Assembly: GCA_965221065.1 (NCBI GenBank)
Contig: OZ244861.1
Location: forward strand, 2,062,984 to 2,126,983
Direction of reading: 5' to 3'
Origin: Dehalococcoidia bacterium
GTDB taxonomy: Bacteria > Chloroflexota > Dehalococcoidia > Bin125
Length of the DNA: 64,000 bases
A model generated the notes under the pieces. It made no database searches. It worked only from the letters and a program-made list of their open reading frames with translations, and was not told where the DNA came from. Both the position numbers and the translations under genes were made by a program. Shown piece by piece: positions 22,114 through 61,548 of the stretch (position 1 is the stretch's first letter; every line of letters begins with the position of its first letter).

Positions 22114-22743
22114 ATGGTGCAGCAACGAGACGGCGGACGAGGGCGGGGCCGCCGCCGCGATCGCGACGAACCGCAGGACGACATCATCGAGAAGGTCGTC
22201 TCGGTCTCCCGCGTGGCCAAGGTAGTCAAGGGTGGACGGCGATTCTCGTTTACATCGGTGGTGGTCGTCGGCGACGGCAACGGCCGCGTCGGGATCGGCA
22301 TCGGACGCGCCAACGAAGTACCCGACGCAATTCGCAAGGGCTCAACCATCGCTCGACGCGAGATGATCAGCGTCCCGATTCGCAACGGCACCATCCCGCA
22401 CCCGATCACGGCCCGATTCTGCGCGTCGCAGGTGTTGCTCAAGCCCGCCGCTCCCGGAACCGGTGTGATCGCCGGTGGTGGTGCGCGTGCCGTGTTGGAA
22501 GCGGTCGGCCTGCGCAACGTGCTTACCAAGTCGCTCGGCTCCAACAACGTGGTCAACGTGGTCCAGGCCACGCGTCGCGCATTGATGGAGCTGCGCGACC
22601 CCGTCCAGGTACGCCGCGAGCGACTGCGTCTCGCGGGTCGGATTCCCGACGAGCCCGCGGCAGCCCCGACCGCCGCTGATGTCGAAACGGAAGCCGCAAA
22701 CGCAGTCGACGCCGAACTCGCCGCGGCCGGAACGAACGAGTAG
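22114..22743 (+). CDS. rpsE: 30S ribosomal protein S5 (with ~40-aa C-terminal extension)
   Basis: ...[32 protein letters not shown]... canonical. Confidence 0.9.
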
Positions 22744-22938: not shown

Positions 22939-23429
22939 TGGTCCTGCGCTTGAACGATCTGAGCCCGCCTCCCGGCTCACGCAAACGGCGAAAGCGCGTC
23001 GGCCGGGGTAACGCTTCGGGCAAAGGCACCTACTCCGGACGCGGGCTCAAGGGCCAACTCTCACGTTCCGGCCGCGACTACAACTCCGTCTTCGAGGGCG
23101 GCGCGATGTCGATCATGCGCACGCTGCCCAGGCGAAAGGGCTTCAAAGCCCCGTTCCGCGTCGAAGCGCAGCCGATCAATGTGGTCGATCTGGAACGCCG
23201 ATTCGCAGACGGTGATACGGTCGATGCAGACGCGCTCGTAGCTGCGGGTCTGCTGCGGCGTGCGACCCAGCGGTTTAAGGTGCTGGCCGGCGGCGAACTC
23301 GCCAGCGCACTGCATCTGCGCGTCGAGCGAATCTCTCCGGCCGCCGAAGCGAAGATCGTTGCCGCGGGCGGCAGCGTCGAGGTCATCAATGCAGAGAACG
23401 CAGACAGCAGCGGGGCCGACGAGGCCTAA
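22938..23429 (+). CDS. rplO: 50S ribosomal protein L15
   Basis: ...RKRVGRGNASGKGTYSGRGLKGQ... canonical; ATGA overlap with rpmD. Confidence 0.9.
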   Translation: MVLRLNDLSPPPGSRKRRKRVGRGNASGKGTYSGRGLKGQLSRSGRDYNSVFEGGAMSIMRTLPRRKGFKAPFRVEAQPINVVDLERRFADGDTVDADALVAAGLLRRATQRFKVLAGGELASALHLRVERISPAAEAKIVAAGGSVEVINAENADSSGADEA

Positions 23430-25137
23430 GCTGCTGCAGGCGTTGGTCGACGCCTGGCGACAGCCGGACGTCCGCCAAAAGCTCGCGTTTACGCTCTCCA
23501 TGCTGGTCATCTTCCGGCTGGTGGCGCACGTCCCCATTCCCGATATCAACAAGACTCAGCTCGAGAACGCGCTCGACAACAACCCCGTTCTCGGCTTCCT
23601 CAACCTCTTCTCCGGCGGCGGACTCGACAACCTCTCGATCGTCGCCCTCGGCGTCTATCCCTACATCACCGCCTCGATCGTGATGAACCTGATGCAGCCA
23701 ATGGTCCCCAAGCTGCAGGCGCTGGCGCAGGAGGGCGAGTCGGGCCGCAACAAGATTCAGCTCTACACCTACTGGCTGGCCGTGCCGATGGCGTTGGTCC
23801 AGGGCTACGGCCAGTTGCTCCTCCTGGAGAACGCTCGCGCCATCACCGGGATCGGCTTCGGCGCCGACGAGTGGCTCCCCACGATCTCGGCCCTGGCCAC
23901 CATGACCGCCGGCACCATGTTCCTGATCTGGCTCGGCGAGCTCATCACCGAGAAGGGCGTCGGCAACGGCATCTCGCTGATCATCTTCGCCGGCATCGTC
24001 GCCAGTTTCCCCACGCTGTTCAACTCCGTGCGCCTGTCCGACATTGGCTGGTCGGGCATCGCCGTCGTGATCGCGATTGCGATCGCCTTGGTCGCGCTGA
24101 TCGTGTTCTTCCAGGAGGCGCAGCGGAGGATTCCCGTTCAATACGCCCGATCGGTCTTCAGAGGCGGGAGGATGTACCGCCAGAGCGGTCAGTCCTACAT
24201 TCCCCTGCGGGTCAACTCCGCGGGCATGATCCCGCTGATCTTCGCCTTCTCGATCATCATCTTCCCCTCGGTGCTGGCCGGTTGGATCACCGGTGCCGCG
24301 GGCGAAGAGGCGCAGACCCAGGTGGCGGTCGAAGTCCCCTTCACGCGTGAGGATGTGGACGAGCCCCTGGCCACGCTGTTCCCCGACCTCGACACGTCCG
24401 GCGAGTTCGTCGTCAACGAGGGCATCATCGAGTGGAACCGCGAGGACGACACGTTCCAGGACGTGCTCGACCGGGTTAACTCCAACTCCGACTCCAACGT
24501 CCTGACCCAGGTCGAGACCACCGCTGACCCCATCTCCGGAGAAACCCTGTACGCCTGGCGCATCGATGCCAACGAAATATCCGAGGACCCGATCCGTCTG
24601 GCCGACCGAGCGGGCAATTTCATCGCCGTCTCCGAGATCAAGACGCACGAGGATCCCGTCGACAATCCGTTGACCCCCGATATCGCCGAAGGCCAAACCC
24701 TGGGCGAACGCCCCGGCTGGATCATTCGAGCGGCGGATTGGGTCCAGTTGAATCTGTCGCCCGGACGACCCGCGTATTGGGCGCTCTCGTTCGTGCTGGT
24801 CGTCGGGTTCACCTTCTTCTACACCTTCGTGACCTTCCAGCAGCAAAACCTGGCCGAGAACCTGCAGAAACAGGGTGGCTTCATCCCCGGCATTCGGCCC
24901 GGTCGACCGACCCAGGACTACATCAATCGGGTGCTCGCGAGGATCACCTGGGCGGGAGCGCTGTTCCTCGGCTTTGTCGCGGTGGTACCGTTCCTCGCCA
25001 CGGAGTTCATTCCCGACTCGACGGCGCTCACGATCTCCTCGACGGGCTTGCTGATCGTCGTCGGAGTCGCGCTCGACACGATGCGTCAGATTGAAGCACA
25101 GCTCTTGATGCGCAATTACGAAGGGTTCATCCGCTAG
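23389..25137 (+). CDS. secY: preprotein translocase subunit SecY carrying a ~145-aa hydrophilic insertion in the TM7-TM8 periplasmic loop
   Basis: Conserved SecY blocks (YITASIVMNLM, GNGISLIIFAGIV, RIPVQYAR, GGFIPGIRPGRPT). Start ATG 23389 (41-nt overlap with rplO) or TTG 23443. The insertion is about 24295-24729 between ...FPSVLAGWITG and AADWVQLNLSPGRPAYW... It is acidic with no TM segment and in frame with high GC3. Confidence 0.85.
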   Translation: MQRTQTAAGPTRPKLLQALVDAWRQPDVRQKLAFTLSMLVIFRLVAHVPIPDINKTQLENALDNNPVLGFLNLFSGGGLDNLSIVALGVYPYITASIVMNLMQPMVPKLQALAQEGESGRNKIQLYTYWLAVPMALVQGYGQLLLLENARAITGIGFGADEWLPTISALATMTAGTMFLIWLGELITEKGVGNGISLIIFAGIVASFPTLFNSVRLSDIGWSGIAVVIAIAIALVALIVFFQEAQRRIPVQYARSVFRGGRMYRQSGQSYIPLRVNSAGMIPLIFAFSIIIFPSVLAGWITGAAGEEAQTQVAVEVPFTREDVDEPLATLFPDLDTSGEFVVNEGIIEWNREDDTFQDVLDRVNSNSDSNVLTQVETTADPISGETLYAWRIDANEISEDPIRLADRAGNFIAVSEIKTHEDPVDNPLTPDIAEGQTLGERPGWIIRAADWVQLNLSPGRPAYWALSFVLVVGFTFFYTFVTFQQQNLAENLQKQGGFIPGIRPGRPTQDYINRVLARITWAGALFLGFVAVVPFLATEFIPDSTALTISSTGLLIVVGVALDTMRQIEAQLLMRNYEGFIR

Positions 25138-25139
25138 CC

Positions 25140-25814
25140 ATGTCAGACACCGATGGCCGGACCATGTACGTCATCCTGCTCGGCCCGCCGGGAGCCGGCA
25201 AGGGCACCCAGGCGGTACAGACTGCCGAACGCACCGGATTGCTCCATCTCTCCACCGGCGACATGTTCCGCGAGAACCTGCGCAACGGCACCGAGCTCGG
25301 CAACCTGGCCAAGACCTACATGGACAAGGGCGAACTGGTCCCCGACGACGTAACCATCCGCATGCTGCTGGAGCGCATCGGTCGCGATGACGCGAGGGTC
25401 GGTTGCCTGTTCGACGGATTCCCGCGCACCGTCGAGCAGGCCAGAGCGCTGGATCTCGCGCTGAAGGAACAGGGCAACGAGATCGCGGTGACGGTGCTGA
25501 TCGACGTGTCGAATCAAGAGATCACACGTCGGCTCGGCGGCCGCGTGAGCTGCGCCGCCTGCGGCAGCGTGTTCCACAAGATCTTCAATCCGGTTGATCT
25601 TGACGACCCTTGCTGCGACACCATCGACATGATCCAGCGTGACGACGACAAACCCGAGGCGGTCGCCAACCGCCTGCAGGTCTACGCCGACCAGACGGAA
25701 CCGCTGGTGGCGTACTACACCGAGGCAGGCAAACTGAAGACGGTGAACGGCGAACAGCCTCCCGACGCCGTAGGCGTCGATTTGCTATCAGTGCTGCAGA
25801 CAGCGACCAACTAG
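25140..25814 (+). CDS. adk: adenylate kinase (long-lid type with Cys cluster)
   Basis: GPPGAGKGTQA P-loop, ...FDGFPRTV..., Cys-rich lid CAACG...CCDT. Confidence 0.9.
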   Translation: MSDTDGRTMYVILLGPPGAGKGTQAVQTAERTGLLHLSTGDMFRENLRNGTELGNLAKTYMDKGELVPDDVTIRMLLERIGRDDARVGCLFDGFPRTVEQARALDLALKEQGNEIAVTVLIDVSNQEITRRLGGRVSCAACGSVFHKIFNPVDLDDPCCDTIDMIQRDDDKPEAVANRLQVYADQTEPLVAYYTEAGKLKTVNGEQPPDAVGVDLLSVLQTATN

Positions 25815-25828
25815 AGTCGGACTACGAG

Positions 25829-26602
25829 ATGTCGACCACACGACAACCGCGCCAGGTGATTCTCAAGACCGCGGCCGAAATTGAACAAATGCGACCGGCC
25901 GGTCAGATGGTCGGAGAGACGCTGGACGAACTGCGGGAGATGGTCAAGCCGGGCCGTAAGCTGTCGGAGCTCGACCAGTACGTGATCGATAAATTCAAGC
26001 GCCTCAACGTGATTCCCACGTTCCTTGGCTACCAGGGCTTCCCGCACACGATCTGCGCGTCGGTCAACGAGGAGATCGTGCACGGATTCGCGACCGAGCG
26101 TCAGTTGGAAGATGGGGACATTCTCTCGATCGACCTGGGCGCGACCATCGATGGCTGGGTCGGCGATTCGGCGAGGACGTTTGCCGTCGGCAGCATCTCA
26201 GAGGAGGCGCAACGGCTGCTGGATGTCACCCGCGAGTCACTCATGGCGGGAATATCGGTCGCGCGCATCGGCGTCCGCAAGGGTGATATCGGCGCAGCGA
26301 TCCAGGAAGTGATAGAATCAGCGGGTTACGGAGTCGTCCGCGGCTACGTCGGGCATGGCGTGGGACGTGACATGCACGAACCACCGAGTATGCCCAACTA
26401 CGGTCGTCCCGGTTCCGGCATGACCATGCGTCGCGGAATGGTCGTCGCGCTCGAGCCCATGGCGACAGTCGGCGATCCGGCCACCGCCGTGTTGGACGAC
26501 GGCTGGACCGTCGTCACAGCCGATGGCAGCCTGTCGGCGCACTTCGAGCACACCGTCGCACTCCGAGAAGACGGACCGGCGGAAATCTTGACGCAGGCCT
26601 GA
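25829..26602 (+). CDS. map: methionine aminopeptidase type I
   Basis: Conserved metal-ligand context (D...D...H...E...E) and pita-bread fold blocks; spc/alpha operon position. Confidence 0.9.
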
Positions 26603-41559: not shown

Positions 41560-42732
41560 ATGAAGGTCGGCGTTCACTTCAACTACCAGAACTACAGCGA
41601 CTGGGACCGATTCGAGGCCCAGGCCGTCTCCGACAAGCCGCAGGTCAGCGACCAGCAGGTCTACGAGGAGGAAATCCACCTCGGCGGACTCGTTGAACCG
41701 CTGGGCTTCGACTCCTACTGGTGTATCGACCACCACTTCTCGCCCTACATCATGACCTCGGGCGCGATGCAGAATCTGACCTACTTCGCCGGCAAGACCG
41801 AGCGCATCGACTTCGGCACCATGGTGATCGTCCTCCCCTGGTACGACCCCGTCGCCATCACCGAGCAGATCACCGTGCTCGACAACATGCTCCAGGGCCG
41901 CAAGCTCACCCTCGGCCTCGGTCGTGGCGCAGCCAAGCGCGAGTTTGAAGCCTTCCGTTCGCCGATGGGCGAGTCTCGCGACCGCTTCATGGAGTCGCTC
42001 GAAGTCGTGCGTAAGGGCCTGACCCAGGAATTCTTCTCCCACGAGGGCGACTTCTACACCATTCCGGAGACCACCATCCGCCCCCGCCCGCGCAACCCGC
42101 AGGCCCTGCTCGACTCGATGCGCGTCGCCTGGATTTCTCCCGAGACGCTCGAGATCGCCGCGAACGCCGGCCTCGGCATGCTCTTCACCAACTCGAAGAA
42201 GTGGGACGAGTACCAGGCCGATGTCAAGCGGTTCAACGAGATTCGCGTCTCCCAGGGCTGGGAGCCGAAGCAGCCCACCGTCGTCGCCAACGTCGCCTGC
42301 TTCGACACCGAGGAGGAAGCCTGGTCGGTCATGCTTGAGCACACCGGCAAGTTCCAGGAGAGCGTCGAGCGCCACTACCACTTCTCCGAATCGGCGCGCT
42401 TCGCCGCGACCAAGGGCTACAAGTACTACGCCGAGTTCGGCAAGACCAACGAGAAGACGACCCCTGAGCAGCGCGCCCAGTTCGCGGCCATGCCTCAGGC
42501 CTGGGGTACGCCCGACCAGGTCATCGAGAAGCTCAAGCACATCCAGCAGGTGACCGCCGCGGAAGAGCTGATCATGAACTTCCGCATCTCCGGCGGCATG
42601 CCCGCCGAGACCGCCGAGCGCAGCATGCGCCTCTTCGCCTCCGACGTGCTACCGGCGATCCATGAGCTCGAGGGCACCATGCCTGAGGAACTTTCGGGTC
42701 GCACCGCCGGTGAGCCAGTCCCGGCCGACTAG
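41560..42732 (+). CDS. LLM-class (luciferase-like) flavin/F420-dependent oxidoreductase
   Basis: TIM-barrel luciferase-like family pattern (MKVGVHF..., ...LGLGRG..., ~390 aa). Confidence 0.7.
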   Translation: MKVGVHFNYQNYSDWDRFEAQAVSDKPQVSDQQVYEEEIHLGGLVEPLGFDSYWCIDHHFSPYIMTSGAMQNLTYFAGKTERIDFGTMVIVLPWYDPVAITEQITVLDNMLQGRKLTLGLGRGAAKREFEAFRSPMGESRDRFMESLEVVRKGLTQEFFSHEGDFYTIPETTIRPRPRNPQALLDSMRVAWISPETLEIAANAGLGMLFTNSKKWDEYQADVKRFNEIRVSQGWEPKQPTVVANVACFDTEEEAWSVMLEHTGKFQESVERHYHFSESARFAATKGYKYYAEFGKTNEKTTPEQRAQFAAMPQAWGTPDQVIEKLKHIQQVTAAEELIMNFRISGGMPAETAERSMRLFASDVLPAIHELEGTMPEELSGRTAGEPVPAD

Positions 42733-47935: not shown

Positions 47936-48889
47936 CTAGCGCTGGTGGACCAGGGGCTCGCCGGGGATAGGCGAACGGGCGTGCAGGACGTAGTCAGTGG
48001 TAATCGAACCGATGTAGAGGTCGCGCATGTCGTCGCCGCCCCAACTGACGTTGGTCGGGTTCTGCATGATCTCGCCGTCGAGGTCTTCGATCATCGTCAC
48101 CACCTCGAGCTGCGGTGTGATTGCAACGACCTTGTTCGACATCACCAGCGTCACCCAGAGATTGCCCTCCTGGTCGAAGCCGCAGCCGTCGGTCAGACCG
48201 AGCTCACCGCGCTCTTCGGGCGAGAGGGGCTGCATCGCGTCGGCAAGGGCGATCGACTTGCCCAGCTGCGGGCCGTAGACCTCGGACTCGCCGAGCGTGC
48301 CGTCGGCGTGGATCGGGAAGCGCAGTACATGGCAGCCGCTCGTGGAGCAGACGTAGGCGTTCTCTTCGCGCGGGTCGAGCGTGATTCCGTTGGGGAACTC
48401 GACCTCGGTGGCGAGCATGGTCAGCGAGCCGTCCGTCTCGATCCGGAAGAGGAGGCCGTCGGGACCGCCGGCGGCGAGCGCGGCGTCTCCCGTGCGCGAA
48501 GTCGAGTGCGTGACCCAGATGCGGCCCTGAGAATCGACGTGGGGATAGTTGGACATGACCAGCGGGATGCCGTCGATCTCATCGGCGAGGACTTCAACCT
48601 CGCCGGTGTCGACGTCGAGCCGCTGCACCGGGCCGCTCGCGCCGCCGCCGTCGAGTCCGCCGACGTTGGCGATGATGATCCGGCCTTCGAGGTCCATGTT
48701 GTTGCCGTTGGGCAACCCGCCCGCGTTGCCGACGCGGTTGAGCGTGCCATCGGGCAGGGCCTCGGCGGCTGCCGAGGCCTGGTCGGCCATCCAGACGCGG
48801 CCGTCGCGCGAGACGACGACATCCTCCGGTCGCTGGACGCCGACGCCGACTTTGCTGAGTTGGTCCTTGCGGATTGGTGTGAGGGGCAT
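47936..48889 (-). CDS. SMP-30/gluconolactonase/LRE-like (SGL) six-bladed beta-propeller protein, paralog A
   Basis: From M 48889: MPLTPIRKDQLSKVGVGVQRPEDVVVSRDGRVWMAD...; repeated ...DSQGRIWVT..., ...DQEGNLWVT... blade motifs typical of lactonase/strictosidine-synthase-like propellers. Confidence 0.6.
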   Translation of the reverse strand: MPLTPIRKDQLSKVGVGVQRPEDVVVSRDGRVWMADQASAAAEALPDGTLNRVGNAGGLPNGNNMDLEGRIIIANVGGLDGGGASGPVQRLDVDTGEVEVLADEIDGIPLVMSNYPHVDSQGRIWVTHSTSRTGDAALAAGGPDGLLFRIETDGSLTMLATEVEFPNGITLDPREENAYVCSTSGCHVLRFPIHADGTLGESEVYGPQLGKSIALADAMQPLSPEERGELGLTDGCGFDQEGNLWVTLVMSNKVVAITPQLEVVTMIEDLDGEIMQNPTNVSWGGDDMRDLYIGSITTDYVLHARSPIPGEPLVHQR

Positions 48890-49065
48890 GGTGGTTTCTA
48901 GGTTGCAGCCTGTCTCGTTGCGCAAACTCACGCGGCGAGAGTCTAGCTGACGGTGAGGAAGTCGGTTGTACTCGAGCAACGATTGCGCCGCACGCACTCC
49001 GCACAGCCCGGCGTGTGCGCCTGGCCGACGGGCCGTCCATGCCGAATGACCGACACGTATGGCCG

Positions 49066-50016
49066 TTAGCGCTGATGGACCAGCGGCTCCCCGGGAATCG
49101 GCGAGCGGGCGTGGACGACGTAGTTGCTTCGGATTGAGCCGATGTACAGGTCGCTCATGTCGTTGCCGCCCCAGCTGACGTTGGTGGGCGCCTGCATGAT
49201 CTCGCCCTCGAGGTCCTCGATCATCGTGACGACCTCGAACTGCGGCGTGATCGCGACGACCTTGTTCGACATCGGCAGCGTGACCCAGAGGTTGCCCTCC
49301 TGGTCGAAACCGCAGCCATCGGTCAGGCCCAGCTCGCCGCGCTGCTCAGCCGACAACGGGCGCATGGCGGCCAGGTCCGCGACCGTCTTGCCCAGTTGAG
49401 GTCCGTAGACCTCGCGCTCGCCGAGCGAGCCGTCCTCGTTGATCGGGAAGCGCAGCACGTGGCAACCCAAGGTCGAGCAGACGTAGGCGTTCTCTTCCTG
49501 TGGGTCGAGCGTGATGCCGTTGGCGAACAAGATGTCAGTCGCGAGCATCGTCAGCGAACCGTCGGTCTCGATGCGGAAGAGGAAGCCGTCAGGCTCGCCG
49601 GAGAACGCGTCGGCACCCGACTGCGACGTCGAGTGGGTCACCCAGATGCGCCCCTGCGAGTCGACGTGCGGGTAATTGGACGAGACCAGCGGGATCCCGT
49701 CGATCTGATCCGCCAGCACCTCAATCTCGCCGCTCTCCACATCAAGGCGCTGGACCGGACCTCTGCCGCCCGGCGTCTCGAGTCCGCCGACATTGGCGAT
49801 GACGATCCGGCCTTCGGCGTCCATGTTGATCCCGTTGGGCGTCCCGCCGGCATTGCCGACTCGGTTCAGCGTGCCATCGGGCAGCGCCTCGACGACGGCC
49901 GACTCGGGGTCGGCGAGCCAGACGCGTCCGTCTCGGGAGACGACGACATCTTCCGGTCGTTGCGCGCCAACGCCGACTTTGCTGAGTTGGTCCTTGCGGA
50001 TTGGGGTGAGGGGCAT
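49066..50016 (-). CDS. SMP-30/gluconolactonase/LRE-like (SGL) beta-propeller protein, paralog B (~80% identical to A)
   Basis: From M 50016: MPLTPIRKDQLSKVGVGAQRPEDVVVSRDGRVWLAD...; colinear with paralog A over its full length. Confidence 0.6.
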   Translation of the reverse strand: MPLTPIRKDQLSKVGVGAQRPEDVVVSRDGRVWLADPESAVVEALPDGTLNRVGNAGGTPNGINMDAEGRIVIANVGGLETPGGRGPVQRLDVESGEIEVLADQIDGIPLVSSNYPHVDSQGRIWVTHSTSQSGADAFSGEPDGFLFRIETDGSLTMLATDILFANGITLDPQEENAYVCSTLGCHVLRFPINEDGSLGEREVYGPQLGKTVADLAAMRPLSAEQRGELGLTDGCGFDQEGNLWVTLPMSNKVVAITPQFEVVTMIEDLEGEIMQAPTNVSWGGNDMSDLYIGSIRSNYVVHARSPIPGEPLVHQR

Positions 50017-50030
50017 GTGGTTGATCCTGT

Positions 50031-51557
50031 CTAGGAAACGACGTCGTCCCAGACGCCGACTTCGGGCCCGCGCCAGTCGTGCTCGACCCGCGGATTGTCG
50101 CCGAGCACCTGGATCGGTTTGGCGCCGGCGTCCCAGGCGGGGGCGTCGACGCCGGCACCGGCGGGGTTGCCGGTCTTGGCGAAGTTGAGCCACGTGTCCA
50201 TCGTCAACTCAGAGAACGCGTCGGCGACAGGTCCGCTTCCACAAAACTCGGGTGCCGCGTCGTGCGTCCCGAAGACGAAGGGCAGCTCGAGCGCATGGCA
50301 GGAACCCAGCGCCCCGTTCATGCCCGGAGACTTCCAGTCGAACAGGTAGGCATACGTCGGAGCACGCGAGGTCTGCGCGTCGGCGAGCCGGAGACCTGGG
50401 ACGCGCAGCATGATGTCTCCGATCGCGGCCACGAAGATCTCGTCGGCCGAGTCGTCCTCGCCACGCTCGCGCCTGGCTGCTCGATACGTGCCATAGGCCG
50501 ACTCCGGTTCCGGGTGCATCATCCCGAACATCGCGGTAGCCGCCTCGTCGGTCATCGGTTCCGTCGGTCCCGCCGCGAGCAGCAGCTTCATCTCTTCATC
50601 GAGCGATCCGACCAGCGTCGCCACGCCGTCGGCCGAGCCGTTGCGGATGTGGTCGATAGGCAGTTGCGAGAGAAACGCCCCATCGATCACAGGCTGGAAC
50701 GGCATCTGCGGTGTGGCCGATGCGCCGGCGTCCGCCATGTCGGCTGCGGATTCTGCGCTCGCGAGGGGGTCAACGGCGACCGACGCCGCCAGGATGTCGG
50801 AAGCGTCCGCCGCCATCAACGCGTCGACATCCTCCGGCTCCACGCCGAGCGCCGCGCAGAACTTGAACGCAGTGCCGTTGGTCTCCTCAACGCTGAGCGC
50901 ATTGTGCCCGGCGCCGCTCTGGGGGATCGCCTTCTGGAACAGCCCGGCCGCCTCCGGCGAGGCCATCAGCGAGGCGACGCTCATCCCGCCCGCCGACTCG
51001 CCGAAGATCGTCACGTTGCTAGGGTCGCCGCCGAAGTTGGCGATGTTCTGCTGCACCCACTTGAGCGCCGCGACCTGGTCGCGCATGCCGAAGTTGGTCT
51101 GGCCGAGCGCAGGTAGGTTCAGGAAGCCGAGCGCGCCGAGTCGGTAGTTGATCGTCACGATCACCACGTCGCCGCGGGAGGCGAGGTTGGCGCCGTCGTA
51201 GTAGTCCTCGCTGCCGGAGCCGATCGTGAACGCGCCCCCGTGGATCCAGACCATGACCGGCCGCGCGCCGTCCAGACCGGGCGTCCAGACGTTGAGGTAG
51301 AGGCAGTCCTCGCTCTGCGGCTGCGGCGGGTCGGAGACCGGCAGCAGAGCCTCCAGCATCTCGTTGGGCGCCTGGAGCGAGATCGGGCCGAACGACTTGG
51401 CCGCGCGAACGCCCTCCCAGGATTCGACTGGTTGCGGCGCTTTGAAGCGAAGCTCGCCAACCGGCGGCGCGGCGAATGGGACACCGCGGAACACGCAGAG
51501 TCCGTTCTCTTCCGATCCCTCGATCGTTCCGGCAGTGGTTTGCGCGATGGCGCTCAT
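50031..51557 (-). CDS. type-B carboxylesterase/lipase family protein
   Basis: GESAGG nucleophile elbow, ...VWIHGGAF... oxyanion motif; AAGGAGACG ribosome-binding site upstream. Confidence 0.8.
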   Translation of the reverse strand: MSAIAQTTAGTIEGSEENGLCVFRGVPFAAPPVGELRFKAPQPVESWEGVRAAKSFGPISLQAPNEMLEALLPVSDPPQPQSEDCLYLNVWTPGLDGARPVMVWIHGGAFTIGSGSEDYYDGANLASRGDVVIVTINYRLGALGFLNLPALGQTNFGMRDQVAALKWVQQNIANFGGDPSNVTIFGESAGGMSVASLMASPEAAGLFQKAIPQSGAGHNALSVEETNGTAFKFCAALGVEPEDVDALMAADASDILAASVAVDPLASAESAADMADAGASATPQMPFQPVIDGAFLSQLPIDHIRNGSADGVATLVGSLDEEMKLLLAAGPTEPMTDEAATAMFGMMHPEPESAYGTYRAARRERGEDDSADEIFVAAIGDIMLRVPGLRLADAQTSRAPTYAYLFDWKSPGMNGALGSCHALELPFVFGTHDAAPEFCGSGPVADAFSELTMDTWLNFAKTGNPAGAGVDAPAWDAGAKPIQVLGDNPRVEHDWRGPEVGVWDDVVS

Positions 51558-59776: not shown

Positions 59777-60544
59777 ATGTTGCGAATGCGGCAGATCTGC
59801 CTGGTGGCTGAGGATCTGGACATGATCGAGGCGCACCTGCGAGGCGTCTTCGGGCTGGAGGTCTGTCACCGCGACCCCGGCGTGGGCCGGTTCGGCCTGC
59901 ACAACTTCCTCATGCCGATCGGCAACTCGTTCCTCGAAGTCGTCTCACCGATGATGCCCGGCACCGCCGGCGGGCGCTACCTGCGACGGCGCGGAGGCGA
60001 CGGCGGCTACATGGTCATCATGCAGTGCAGCGACATTGCCGCGAGACGCGAGCACGTTGCCAACCTCAGCATCCGCTTGATCACGGACTCTGGCAACGAT
60101 CAGACCGACGGGATCCAGCTCCACCCCAAGGATGTCCCCGGAGCGATCGCGGAGTTGCGCTGGAACACCGGCGACGACCAGCTCGACGGTCCCTGGAATC
60201 CCGCCGGCGACCACTGGCTGCCGGCCAAGCGTGAGCACGTGATCACCGCGATGACAGCGGCGGAGCTACAGAGCGACGACCCATCGGCAATGGCGGCTCG
60301 CTGGTCGGAAGTGCTGGAAGTCCCGACCGGCTCAGATGATGACGGTCACCCGACCGTCGCGCTGGATGACGCGACGCTTCGGTTCGTGGAGGCGTCGGAC
60401 GGCCGGGGAGAAGGTCTGGGCGGCCTCGAAGTGGCGACGATCGATCGAGGGCACGTCGTTTCGACGGCGCGCCATCATGACCTTGAGGTGTCGGAGGACG
60501 AGTCGGTCGTGATGCTCTGCGGCGTCCGCTTCAAGCTCGTCTAG
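59777..60544 (+). CDS. VOC-family (glyoxalase/bleomycin-resistance/dioxygenase fold) protein
   Basis: ATG 59777 with GGAGAGAGG ribosome-binding site; paired beta-alpha-beta-beta-beta modules (...ICLVAEDLD...HLRGVFGLEV...). Confidence 0.5.
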   Translation: MLRMRQICLVAEDLDMIEAHLRGVFGLEVCHRDPGVGRFGLHNFLMPIGNSFLEVVSPMMPGTAGGRYLRRRGGDGGYMVIMQCSDIAARREHVANLSIRLITDSGNDQTDGIQLHPKDVPGAIAELRWNTGDDQLDGPWNPAGDHWLPAKREHVITAMTAAELQSDDPSAMAARWSEVLEVPTGSDDDGHPTVALDDATLRFVEASDGRGEGLGGLEVATIDRGHVVSTARHHDLEVSEDESVVMLCGVRFKLV

Positions 60545-61548
60545 CGGATCGAACCAACGAAGCTACGCAGGCCGGCCTTGAGGTTGGTCGTGGCGTCGAT
60601 CACCGCCGACGCCTCGTAGCCGGAGTGAACCATGCAGTCGACGCACTTCGGGTTGCCCGAGGCGACGCCGTAGTTCTCCCATTCCGTCTCTTCGATCAGT
60701 TCCCTGAAGCTGTCAGCGTAGCCCTCATCCATCAAGTAACAGGGCTTCTGCCAGCCGAACACGGTGTACGTCGGGTTACCCCAGGGTGTGCAGTCGTACT
60801 CAATCTCCCCTTTGAGGAAGTCAAGGAACAGCTCGGAGTGGTTGAACTTCCAGTGCCTGGGCGGATCGTCGAGGATGTCGCGGAACAGTTCCTTGGTCTG
60901 GTTGCGAGCCAGGAAATGCTCCTGGTCCGGAGCCTTCTCGTAGGGGTAACCCGGCGAGATCATCAGCCCGTCGACGCCAATCTCCATCAGCTTGTCGAAC
61001 ATCATCCGGATCCGGTCGGGCTTGGCGCCCAGGAAGAAGGTGCTGTTCGTCGTCACCCGGAAGCCGCGCTCCTTGGCCGCCTCGATCGCGCGGATCGCGA
61101 CATCCCAGATGCCGTCCCGACAAACTGAGTCGTCGTGGTCCTGCTCGTACCCGTCGACATGGACAGAGAACGTCAGGTAGGGATCGGGCTCGAAGTCCTG
61201 CAGCTTCCGCTCGAGCAGGATCGCATTGGTGCACAGATAAACGAACTTCTTGCGCTCGGTGAATCCCTTGGCGATCTCGACGATGTCCTTGTGGATCAAC
61301 GGCTCGCCGCCGGCGATCGCAACGACCGGAGCGCCGCACTCTTCGACGGCGTCCCAGCACTGCTGCGGCGAAAGACGCCGGCGCAGGATGTCCGTCGGAT
61401 GTTGGATCTTGCCGCAACCGGCGCATTCGAGATTGCACTGCAGCAGCGGCTCGAGCATCAGCACGAGCGGGTAGCGCTCCGTCCGGCGAAGCTGCTGTCC
61501 AACGACGTACTTGCCAACCTGGATGGTCTGTCGTAACGGTGTGGCCAT
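60541..61548 (-). CDS. hpnH: adenosyl-hopene transferase, hopanoid-biosynthesis radical SAM protein HpnH
   Basis: Near-colinear with known HpnH: RYPLVLMLEPLLQCNLECAGCGKIQHP (CxxxCxxC), ...FVYLCTNA..., ...MISPGYPYEKAPDQEHFL..., ...KPCYLM..., ...KCVDCMVHSGYE... Confidence 0.75.
   Translation of the reverse strand: MATPLRQTIQVGKYVVGQQLRRTERYPLVLMLEPLLQCNLECAGCGKIQHPTDILRRRLSPQQCWDAVEECGAPVVAIAGGEPLIHKDIVEIAKGFTERKKFVYLCTNAILLERKLQDFEPDPYLTFSVHVDGYEQDHDDSVCRDGIWDVAIRAIEAAKERGFRVTTNSTFFLGAKPDRIRMMFDKLMEIGVDGLMISPGYPYEKAPDQEHFLARNQTKELFRDILDDPPRHWKFNHSELFLDFLKGEIEYDCTPWGNPTYTVFGWQKPCYLMDEGYADSFRELIEETEWENYGVASGNPKCVDCMVHSGYEASAVIDATTNLKAGLRSFVGSIR

Follow-up and report, generated by a model that had tools for sequence, protein, structure and literature searches.

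A predicted FliD head-like domain in the TM7-TM8 loop of the housekeeping SecY of one clade of uncultured Dehalococcoidia

The stretch of DNA analyzed here, 64,000 nucleotides of contig OZ244861.1 from a Dehalococcoidia bacterium (hereafter the window), encodes a SecY protein with an additional domain in the exoplasmic loop (P4) that connects transmembrane helices 7 and 8 (TM7 and TM8). The insertion comprises residues 303-447 (24295-24729, + strand), carries a net charge of -25 and has no counterpart in the solved SecY structures or in the nearest relatives outside its own group. Structure prediction gives it an α/β fold resembling the D2-D3 head of FliD, followed by a conserved linker that leads back to TM8. 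The inserted domain is confined to one clade of uncultured bacteria, in which it has been retained under purifying selection, and the combination of SecY with a FliD-like domain gives a known protein an architecture that is new. Confidence in this structural and evolutionary description is high, and the role at the channel exit that is proposed below is put forward more cautiously.

Sequence comparisons with every solved SecY using HMMER split the match of the 582-residue protein into two parts, residues 21-299 and 451-582. In the Geobacillus SecY (5eul_Y) these parts correspond to residues 7-284 and 293-424, leaving 151 residues of the query opposite 8 of the structure. The match to the Pfam SecY family (PF00344, E = 2.5e-100, 336.2 bits against a cut-off of 32.2) is likewise divided into two stretches. 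The N-terminal part (residues 1-302, 23389-24294, + strand) contains TM1-TM7, with AlphaFold2 helices up to residue 302 and a consistent hydropathy profile, and ends in the lateral-gate helix TM7 with the sequence ...FPSVLAGWITG. The C-terminal part (residues 448-582 and the stop codon, 24730-25137, + strand) contains TM8-TM10. The predicted helices and the hydropathy peaks agree with the ten SecY helices, TM1-TM10, in canonical order. The first-pass annotation, made from the DNA alone, had described a colinear in-frame insertion at 24295-24729 in the TM7-TM8 loop that is hydrophilic, acidic and free of membrane-spanning helices. The Pfam, 5eul_Y and TIGR00967 alignments agree on such an insertion, and the interval translates without a stop codon into residues 303-447.

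The size of the insertion was estimated from the stretch LAGW...WVQLN in the query and the 120 nearest SecYs listed from 5.8 billion clustered proteins. The stretch is 160 residues long in the query and 155-168 residues long in 97 sequences (query included), whereas it measures 17-24 residues, mostly 23-24, in the 24 nearest insert-less sequences, which are Dehalococcoidia proteins of 437-454 residues in full length. Against the nearest SecYs without the insert (443-454 residues, with 23-24 residues in this stretch), the net gain is ~137 residues. No degraded or shortened inserts were seen in the alignment of the 120 nearest SecYs.

The insert contains 34 Asp or Glu residues, 9 Lys or Arg residues and no Cys, giving the net charge of -25 (the family mean is -21), which bears out the acidic character noted at first pass. 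Its peak 19-residue Kyte-Doolittle hydropathy is only 0.45, and thus no transmembrane helix is present. The junctions read ...TG/AAGEE and ...IIR/AADW. The GC content at third codon positions is 0.85 in the insert, compared with 0.88 in the SecY core and 0.83 in adk, the GC content of the three codon positions of the insert is 0.66/0.40/0.85, in line with the core and adk, and the GC profile shows no break at the insert. The composition of the insert is host-like. The lack of stop codons alone is weak evidence for the insert, because two frames on the opposite strand of this 64%-GC stretch are free of stops as well. Conservation and selection, described below, are the decisive evidence that the insert is real.

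The insert-bearing gene (secY, 23389-25137, + strand) has 582 codons and a stop codon and lies within an open reading frame (ORF) at 23260-25137 on the same strand. The gene order around it, L5-S8-L6-L18-S5-L30-L15-SecY-Adk-Map-IF1-S13-S11-S4-RpoA, is that of the canonical spc ribosomal-protein operon, and the public gene calls flanking secY at loci L043-L046 are ribosomal-operon genes in the order seen in the window. The protein passes the NCBIfam equivalog model TIGR00967 (354.8 bits, cut-off 253.6), with which it is colinear over positions 1-414 of 414. An identity as the accessory SecY2 was rejected, the scores lying far under the cut-offs of TIGR02920 (152 vs. 249.6 bits) and NF009082 (157.6 vs. 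353 bits). Thus, judged by operon context and homology, the insert-bearing gene encodes the housekeeping SecY channel. The start codon (ATG, 23389) is backed by the motif MQR(T/A)QTA, conserved in 40 species-representative loci. At one locus (L034) the open frame starts exactly at the equivalent ATG, and public gene calls choose likewise.

The evolutionary relationship of the insert-bearing sequences was analyzed with a neighbor-joining tree computed from SecY core columns only, for 93 insert-bearing sequences with a near-complete core and 24 insert-less neighbors. The 93 sequences are monophyletic and separate from the 24 nearest insert-less ones. Because they form one clade in the core tree, the distribution fits a single acquisition in the ancestor of the clade, followed by vertical descent under purifying selection. 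In this ancestor, a domain of ~110 residues with a FliD-head fold and a conserved linker of ~25 residues were inserted in the TM7-TM8 loop. The most distant members of the clade retain a core identity of 64% and an insert identity of 36%. Over 586 genome pairs, the median ratio of nonsynonymous to synonymous substitution rates (dN/dS, Nei-Gojobori) is 0.086 in the insert, compared with 0.025 in the core; accordingly the insert is under strong purifying constraint, ~3-fold weaker than that on the SecY core. Among closer relatives (at least 79% insert identity to the window) the dN/dS of the insert is 0.03-0.1, and it reaches 0.2-0.44 in more divergent pairs.

Alignment of 36 inserts that are 38-66% identical to that of the query showed 14 invariant columns (P317, G338, N343, N364, V371, I402, D406, G409, T429, E434, G435, Q436, G439 and R447). 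Conservation is densest in the C-terminal linker, D-x-P-L-T-P-D-x-x-E-G-Q-T-x-G-E-R-P. This linker back to TM8 (residues 425-447, DNPLTPDIAEGQTLGERPGWIIR; 24661-24729, + strand) holds the invariant T429, E434, G435, Q436, G439 and R447 and has low predicted local distance difference test (pLDDT) scores in both of the models described below. Some sub-lineages have small secondary insertions near SecY residues 410-425, e.g. VYDTEATGFNLAV or PLPVNLLGVPVV, directly before the fixed DDPLT linker, and the insert of protein P0059 holds the secondary insertion QALLDEAGEP. Comparison of the cores showed 33 positions that are fixed differently in the insert-bearing clade, 26 of them in outer loops or outer helix halves, compared with 48% of all core positions (p = 2e-4).

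The insert is found in many independent assemblies, which settles the concern, raised at first pass, that it might be an assembly artefact. An identical protein of 582 residues is encoded on at least five contigs from different assemblies, the four shown being one from NCBI and three from ENA, and the name of one ENA contig, ctg357463_5x_l, points to assembly from long reads. A scan with one genome per GTDB species located the insert in 41 Dehalococcoidia/Chloroflexota metagenome-assembled genomes (MAGs), many of them chromosomes of 2.3-3.6 Mb. The gene is full-length and intact, encoding 581-584 residues, at 40 of the 41 loci; at the remaining one (L032) it is cut by the contig end. Word-indexed protein searches with the insert alone or with the insert alignment retrieved frameshifted SecY fragments only, and a full-length query was needed to recover the clade. 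Six such fragments of 121-259 residues (P0001-P0005 and P0131), which match the region 24283-24741 of the window and come from several ENA metagenome assemblies, probably stem from indel errors in long-read assemblies and are unlikely to be pseudogenes.

An intein, likewise excluded at first pass from the junction sequences, was rejected. Pfam scans of the query SecY and 36 inserts detected no Hint, endonuclease or other domain in the insert, none of the 36 inserts contains Cys, the HN-Cys/Ser/Thr junction is absent and the junctions are unlike splice junctions. The FliD-like fold described next is a further point against an intein.

Structure prediction with AlphaFold2 from an alignment of 74 sequences showed that the insert is the most confident part of the protein, with pLDDT values of 84-90 at approximately residues 310-400. 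A model of the insert only (36 sequences) gave pLDDT values of 78-97 for residues 310-419, the last 25-30 residues, which form the linker, lying below 55. Both models predict an independent folded module, as the first-pass annotation had supposed. The predicted elements of the insert follow the order strand, two short helices, hairpin, helix, long hairpin, strand and helix, and the folded α/β core (residues 310-419, 24316-24645, + strand) has five main strands and three short helices. Structural searches with Foldseek ranked FliD structures first with a probability of about 1.0, and a viral structure library contained nothing closer than FliD. The predicted fold is that of the FliD D2-D3 head domains.

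Sequence searches are consistent with this fold assignment. An exhaustive HMMER search with the insert alone against 1.84 billion representative proteins retrieved, apart from SecY fragments, only two proteins, P0129 and P0130. P0130 (phmmer E = 1.2e-4 to the insert) is a protein of 958 residues in which the pattern GSFxVNGxxIxVxxDDTxxxVLxRINxSxAGVTAS is repeated five times in tandem, and three of the four repeats scanned pass the gathering score of the Flagellin_IN family PF07196 (23.9-33.9 bits vs. 22.7). The insert profile aligns with the P0130 repeats over residues 338-418 with an hhalign probability of 91.7% and E = 7.6e-7, so that the link to PF07196 is a transitive one, through a single protein. 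This Flagellin_IN-like segment of the insert (24400-24642, + strand) follows the pattern G-F-x-VN ... D(T/S)F-x-D(V/L)L-x-R(I/V)N ... ANVLT ... I-x-L-x-D-x-x-GNFI. Against the PDB, the P0130 repeat profile gave FliD at a non-significant E of 4.7, and P0130 itself gave no match. On its contig of 13.4 kb (JGI sample 3300041965), P0130 adjoins ankyrin-repeat, HXXSHH-domain and CarboxypepD_reg proteins, a non-flagellar neighborhood. The other protein, P0129, an fn3/subtilase protein of 2042 residues, has nine weak stretches against residues 61-97 of the insert (E = 1.3e-6), which were taken as a repetitive β-strand or compositional match, and it was set aside.

Because Foldseek ranks FliD first and hhalign links the insert to P0130 repeats that pass PF07196, the insert is best classified, on predicted structure and remote homology, as a divergent member of the FliD-head/IN-motif domain class. 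An identity with FliD itself was rejected, as the D0/D1 legs, the flagellar context and a direct Pfam match are all missing, with neither FliD_N nor FliD_C matching SecY or the 36 inserts. Pfam searches of the query and 36 homologues gave only scattered matches in the insert (E of 0.04 or weaker), NCBIfam gave nothing on the insert, and a PDB sequence-profile search with the insert gave only an IgA-Fc-receptor at a non-significant E of 0.11. The remaining concern from first pass, that a long P4 loop might be an annotated feature of a SecY subfamily, does not apply: relatives share the insert, but it is part of no SecY model in Pfam or NCBIfam, and the literature searched holds no description of a SecY P4 insertion domain, of a SecY insertion in Chloroflexi or of a link between SecY and FliD. 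To the initial description the present analysis adds the FliD-head/Flagellin_IN-like fold, the restriction to one clade as its marker, and the C-terminal linker as the most conserved part.

The carriers of the insert are all uncultured Dehalococcoidia. One of them (locus L018) is contig MPNM01000001 of 'bin125', a MAG from the sponge Aplysina aerophoba (PMC5649159), and a Dehalococcoidia lineage is labelled 'Bin125' in the re-classification of the Chloroflexota (PMC10608941). The insert-bearing group thus includes the sponge MAG that is the namesake of the Bin125 lineage. The isolate names of other carriers (RHO*, IRC*, SB066x, PNGco and UUID-named chromosomes) look like those of sponge-metagenome bins, a sponge origin being verified for bin125 only, and the clade is apparently largely sponge-associated. 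Bayer et al. found no flagellar genes in six sponge Chloroflexi genomes, and peptidoglycan-synthesis genes are missing from the SAR202 genomes of that set (PMC6306507). One insert-bearing SecY (P0102, 779 residues, JGI) has a gene call with a Gly/Ala/Glu-rich N-terminal extension of ~350 residues, which in all likelihood reflects over-extension of the ORF on a short contig of high GC content and no fusion.

The N terminus of SecY is cytoplasmic and the TM7-TM8 loop is exoplasmic. From this canonical topology and the positive-inside rule we infer that the acidic domain lies on the outer face of the membrane, because its net charge of -25 and its lack of hydrophobic segments and Cys fit a translocated domain. 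The lateral-gate helix TM7 and TM8 would serve as its direct anchors, adjacent to the plug and the channel exit. As the tether to TM7 is only a few residues long and the return to TM8 runs through the invariant linker, the domain is expected at the trans-side mouth of the channel. There it may act as a built-in accessory of the translocon at the outer exit or lateral gate. It could contact unfolded chains leaving the pore or the lateral gate, or dock a partner that does so, and thereby influence gating, backsliding or hand-over, and the EGQ-containing linker might couple the domain to the channel body with feedback on gating. A role in translocation is the most economical reading because of three precedents compared at the end of this text, namely loop 7 of Sec61, the separate exit modules of bacteria and FliD. 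Contacts with substrates, chaperones, the wall or a phage receptor, which the first-pass annotation suggested, are candidate functions only. The exit-site mechanism is our preferred reading and is offered tentatively, as a possibility rather than a probability. The broader explanation that combines the history of the insertion with an accessory at the outer exit is on balance probable.

Several observations weigh against this explanation. The identity between the insert and FliD is only 8-18% in structural alignments, and no Pfam model matches the insert directly, Flagellin_IN (PF07196) giving no match up to E = 10 in the 36 inserts. The enrichment of clade-specific core positions on the outer side is marginal when the 26 of 33 positions are compared with the variable positions, of which 63% are outer (Fisher p = 0.045), and is not significant against control splits within the clade (60-65% outer, p = 0.25), so that a co-adaptation of the outer face of SecY is suggestive only. 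Furthermore, the position of the domain relative to the pore is one that we infer, and both models give the linker low confidence. A bolder version of the exit-site mechanism is unlikely, though conceivable. In that version the domain would form a permanent cap or ratchet over the Sec exit, re-using the 'channel-exit chaperone' head of FliD, that binds unfolded chains, stops their backsliding and promotes folding or release. It might replace helpers of the SecDF or PpiD type in wall-less symbionts, with the EGQ linker coupling substrate sensing to the plug or lateral gate.

Another location of function was considered, in which the domain has no part in translocation and serves as an anchor to the envelope or host matrix. 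It would bind the S-layer, glycans or sponge-matrix polymers and position or immobilize SecYEG, or act as an adhesin. In some bacteria the FliD cap confers adherence and binds heparin (PMC7316729), and the fold search found the same fold on exposed surfaces of flagellins and phage sheaths. At least one carrier, bin125, lives in a sponge, other isolate names look sponge-derived, and the membrane surface would be less shielded in cells similar to the SAR202 sponge symbionts that lack peptidoglycan-synthesis genes. However, a 12-kDa domain on a membrane-proximal loop spans only a few nanometers, and an adhesin on an essential, low-copy translocon brings no obvious gain. The low dN/dS values in closer relatives (more divergent pairs giving higher ones) suit a conserved internal partner better than a surface facing hosts or phages, and the linker rather than the exposed domain is the most conserved part. 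An anchoring function is therefore regarded as improbable.

Oligomerization through the insert was given a still smaller chance. The domain would join several SecYEG units on the outer side, in the manner of FliD head rings. Isolated FliD D2-D3 heads crystallize as rings of 4-6 subunits (PMC7316729, PMC5072837), and the insert shares their predicted fold. However, FliD forms its rings through plastic interfaces that require D0/D1 (PMC7316729), domains that the insert lacks, and one SecY copy is reported to suffice for translocation in E. coli (PMC3432775).

A tolerated passenger, which a permissive loop happened to capture and which persists only since its loss would disturb the folding of SecY, is about as doubtful as oligomerization. 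Yeast Sec61 survives the deletion of loop 7 (PMC3897919), showing that the loop is structurally permissive, and lineage-specific sub-insertions such as the VYDTEATGFNLAV-type segments occur within the insert itself. A passenger with no function of its own is nevertheless hard to reconcile with purifying selection only ~3-fold weaker than that on the core, with 14 invariant residues that include the linear EGQ motif, and with the retention of the insert in 93 of 93 clade sequences with cores down to 64% identity and no degraded or shortened versions seen among them. A last alternative takes the insert for a mis-assembly or for a selfish element such as an intein or mobile insertion, or the gene for a decaying additional copy of secY. 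The few frameshifted public gene calls P0001-P0005 might point to it, but it has virtually no chance and is already refuted by the intact genes in many independent assemblies, the host-like codon composition, the lack of Hint or endonuclease domains and of Cys, the canonical operon, the equivalog model passed and the core dN/dS of 0.025.

The neighbors of secY in the window are ordinary members of the operon. The upstream gene rplO, encoding L15 (22938-23429, + strand; Pfam Ribosomal_L27A), holds the same position at L043-L046. The ATG of secY lies 41 nucleotides inside the 3' end of rplO, an overlap that four other assemblies share in their public gene calls and that suggests translational coupling. 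Downstream follow adk (25140-25814, + strand; Pfam ADK) and map (25829-26602, + strand; Pfam Peptidase_M24). Ribosomal protein S5 of the same operon (209 residues, 22114-22743, + strand) carries, outside its two Pfam domains, an N-terminal extension rich in Arg, Gly and Asp and a C-terminal tail rich in Ala and Glu. On the opposite strand, an ORF of 486 codons without a family match (23386-24846, - strand) spans most of secY including the insert and is a shadow ORF of the kind usual for genes with 64% GC.

The remainder of the window encodes ordinary metabolism. Its other genes include no Sec components beyond secY and no flagellar components, with 0 of 31 window ORFs being flagellar in a Pfam scan. 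A radical-SAM protein with a DUF3463 domain is encoded at 60541-61548 (- strand), an architecture that we take to be that of the hopanoid enzyme HpnH. A luciferase-like monooxygenase is encoded at 41560-42732 (+ strand), and two adjoining SMP-30/gluconolactonase-like genes lie at 47936-50193 (- strand). These genes are ordinary metabolic content and have no relation to the SecY insert.

SecY/Sec61 are among the most conserved membrane proteins, and the outer loops of the bacterial proteins are short. In the current view, pulling from the trans side, prevention of backsliding and hand-over to chaperones call for separate proteins. A natural lineage with a conserved, selected folded domain fused to the trans side of TM7 therefore represents a ready-made test of such modules in translocation. 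The insert is easy to delete or transplant, making the hypothesis directly testable in E. coli or in proteoliposomes. It also extends the uses of the FliD-head/Flagellin_IN fold past flagella and phage tails, and it serves as a clear-cut molecular marker of a widespread and apparently largely sponge-associated clade.

Folded modules outside the membrane near the SecY exit or lateral gate are known from PpiD/YfgM, the P1 head of SecDF and the P1 domain of YidC. The P1 domain of YidC resembles the insert in being a lineage-specific domain on a universally conserved insertase. However, YidC P1, SecDF P1 and PpiD/YfgM are separate polypeptides or insertions elsewhere with other folds, and none of them is located within SecY.

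FliD (HAP2) provides the structural precedent. It is placed above the outlet of the flagellar export channel, where it assists the folding of unfolded flagellin into place (PMC5072837, PMC7316729). In comparison with the insert, FliD has D0/D1 coiled-coil legs and is a free pentamer, whereas the insert consists of ~145 residues present as a single copy in a membrane protein. The context of FliD is flagellar, whereas that of the insert is a ribosomal operon and non-flagellar. The closest sequence relatives outside SecY are non-flagellar Flagellin_IN repeat proteins of the P0130 type, which differ from the insert in carrying tandem repeats in a large, probably secreted protein that is not embedded in the membrane.

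The closest positional precedent is found in Sec61, in which the P4 loop of SecY corresponds to loop 7 (PMC3897919). Loop 7 contains a mini-helix, is no independent folded domain, has no FliD-like fold and is not homologous to the insert, and the yeast deletion of loop 7 with the lumenal ends of TMD7 and TMD8 removes 66 residues (PMC3897919). However, loop 7 of Sec61 α occupies the same loop on the trans side and is likewise attached to the lateral-gate helix TM7, and no other lumenal element is of appreciable size; loop 7 touches BiP, and soluble proteins depend on it for their transport (PMC3897919).

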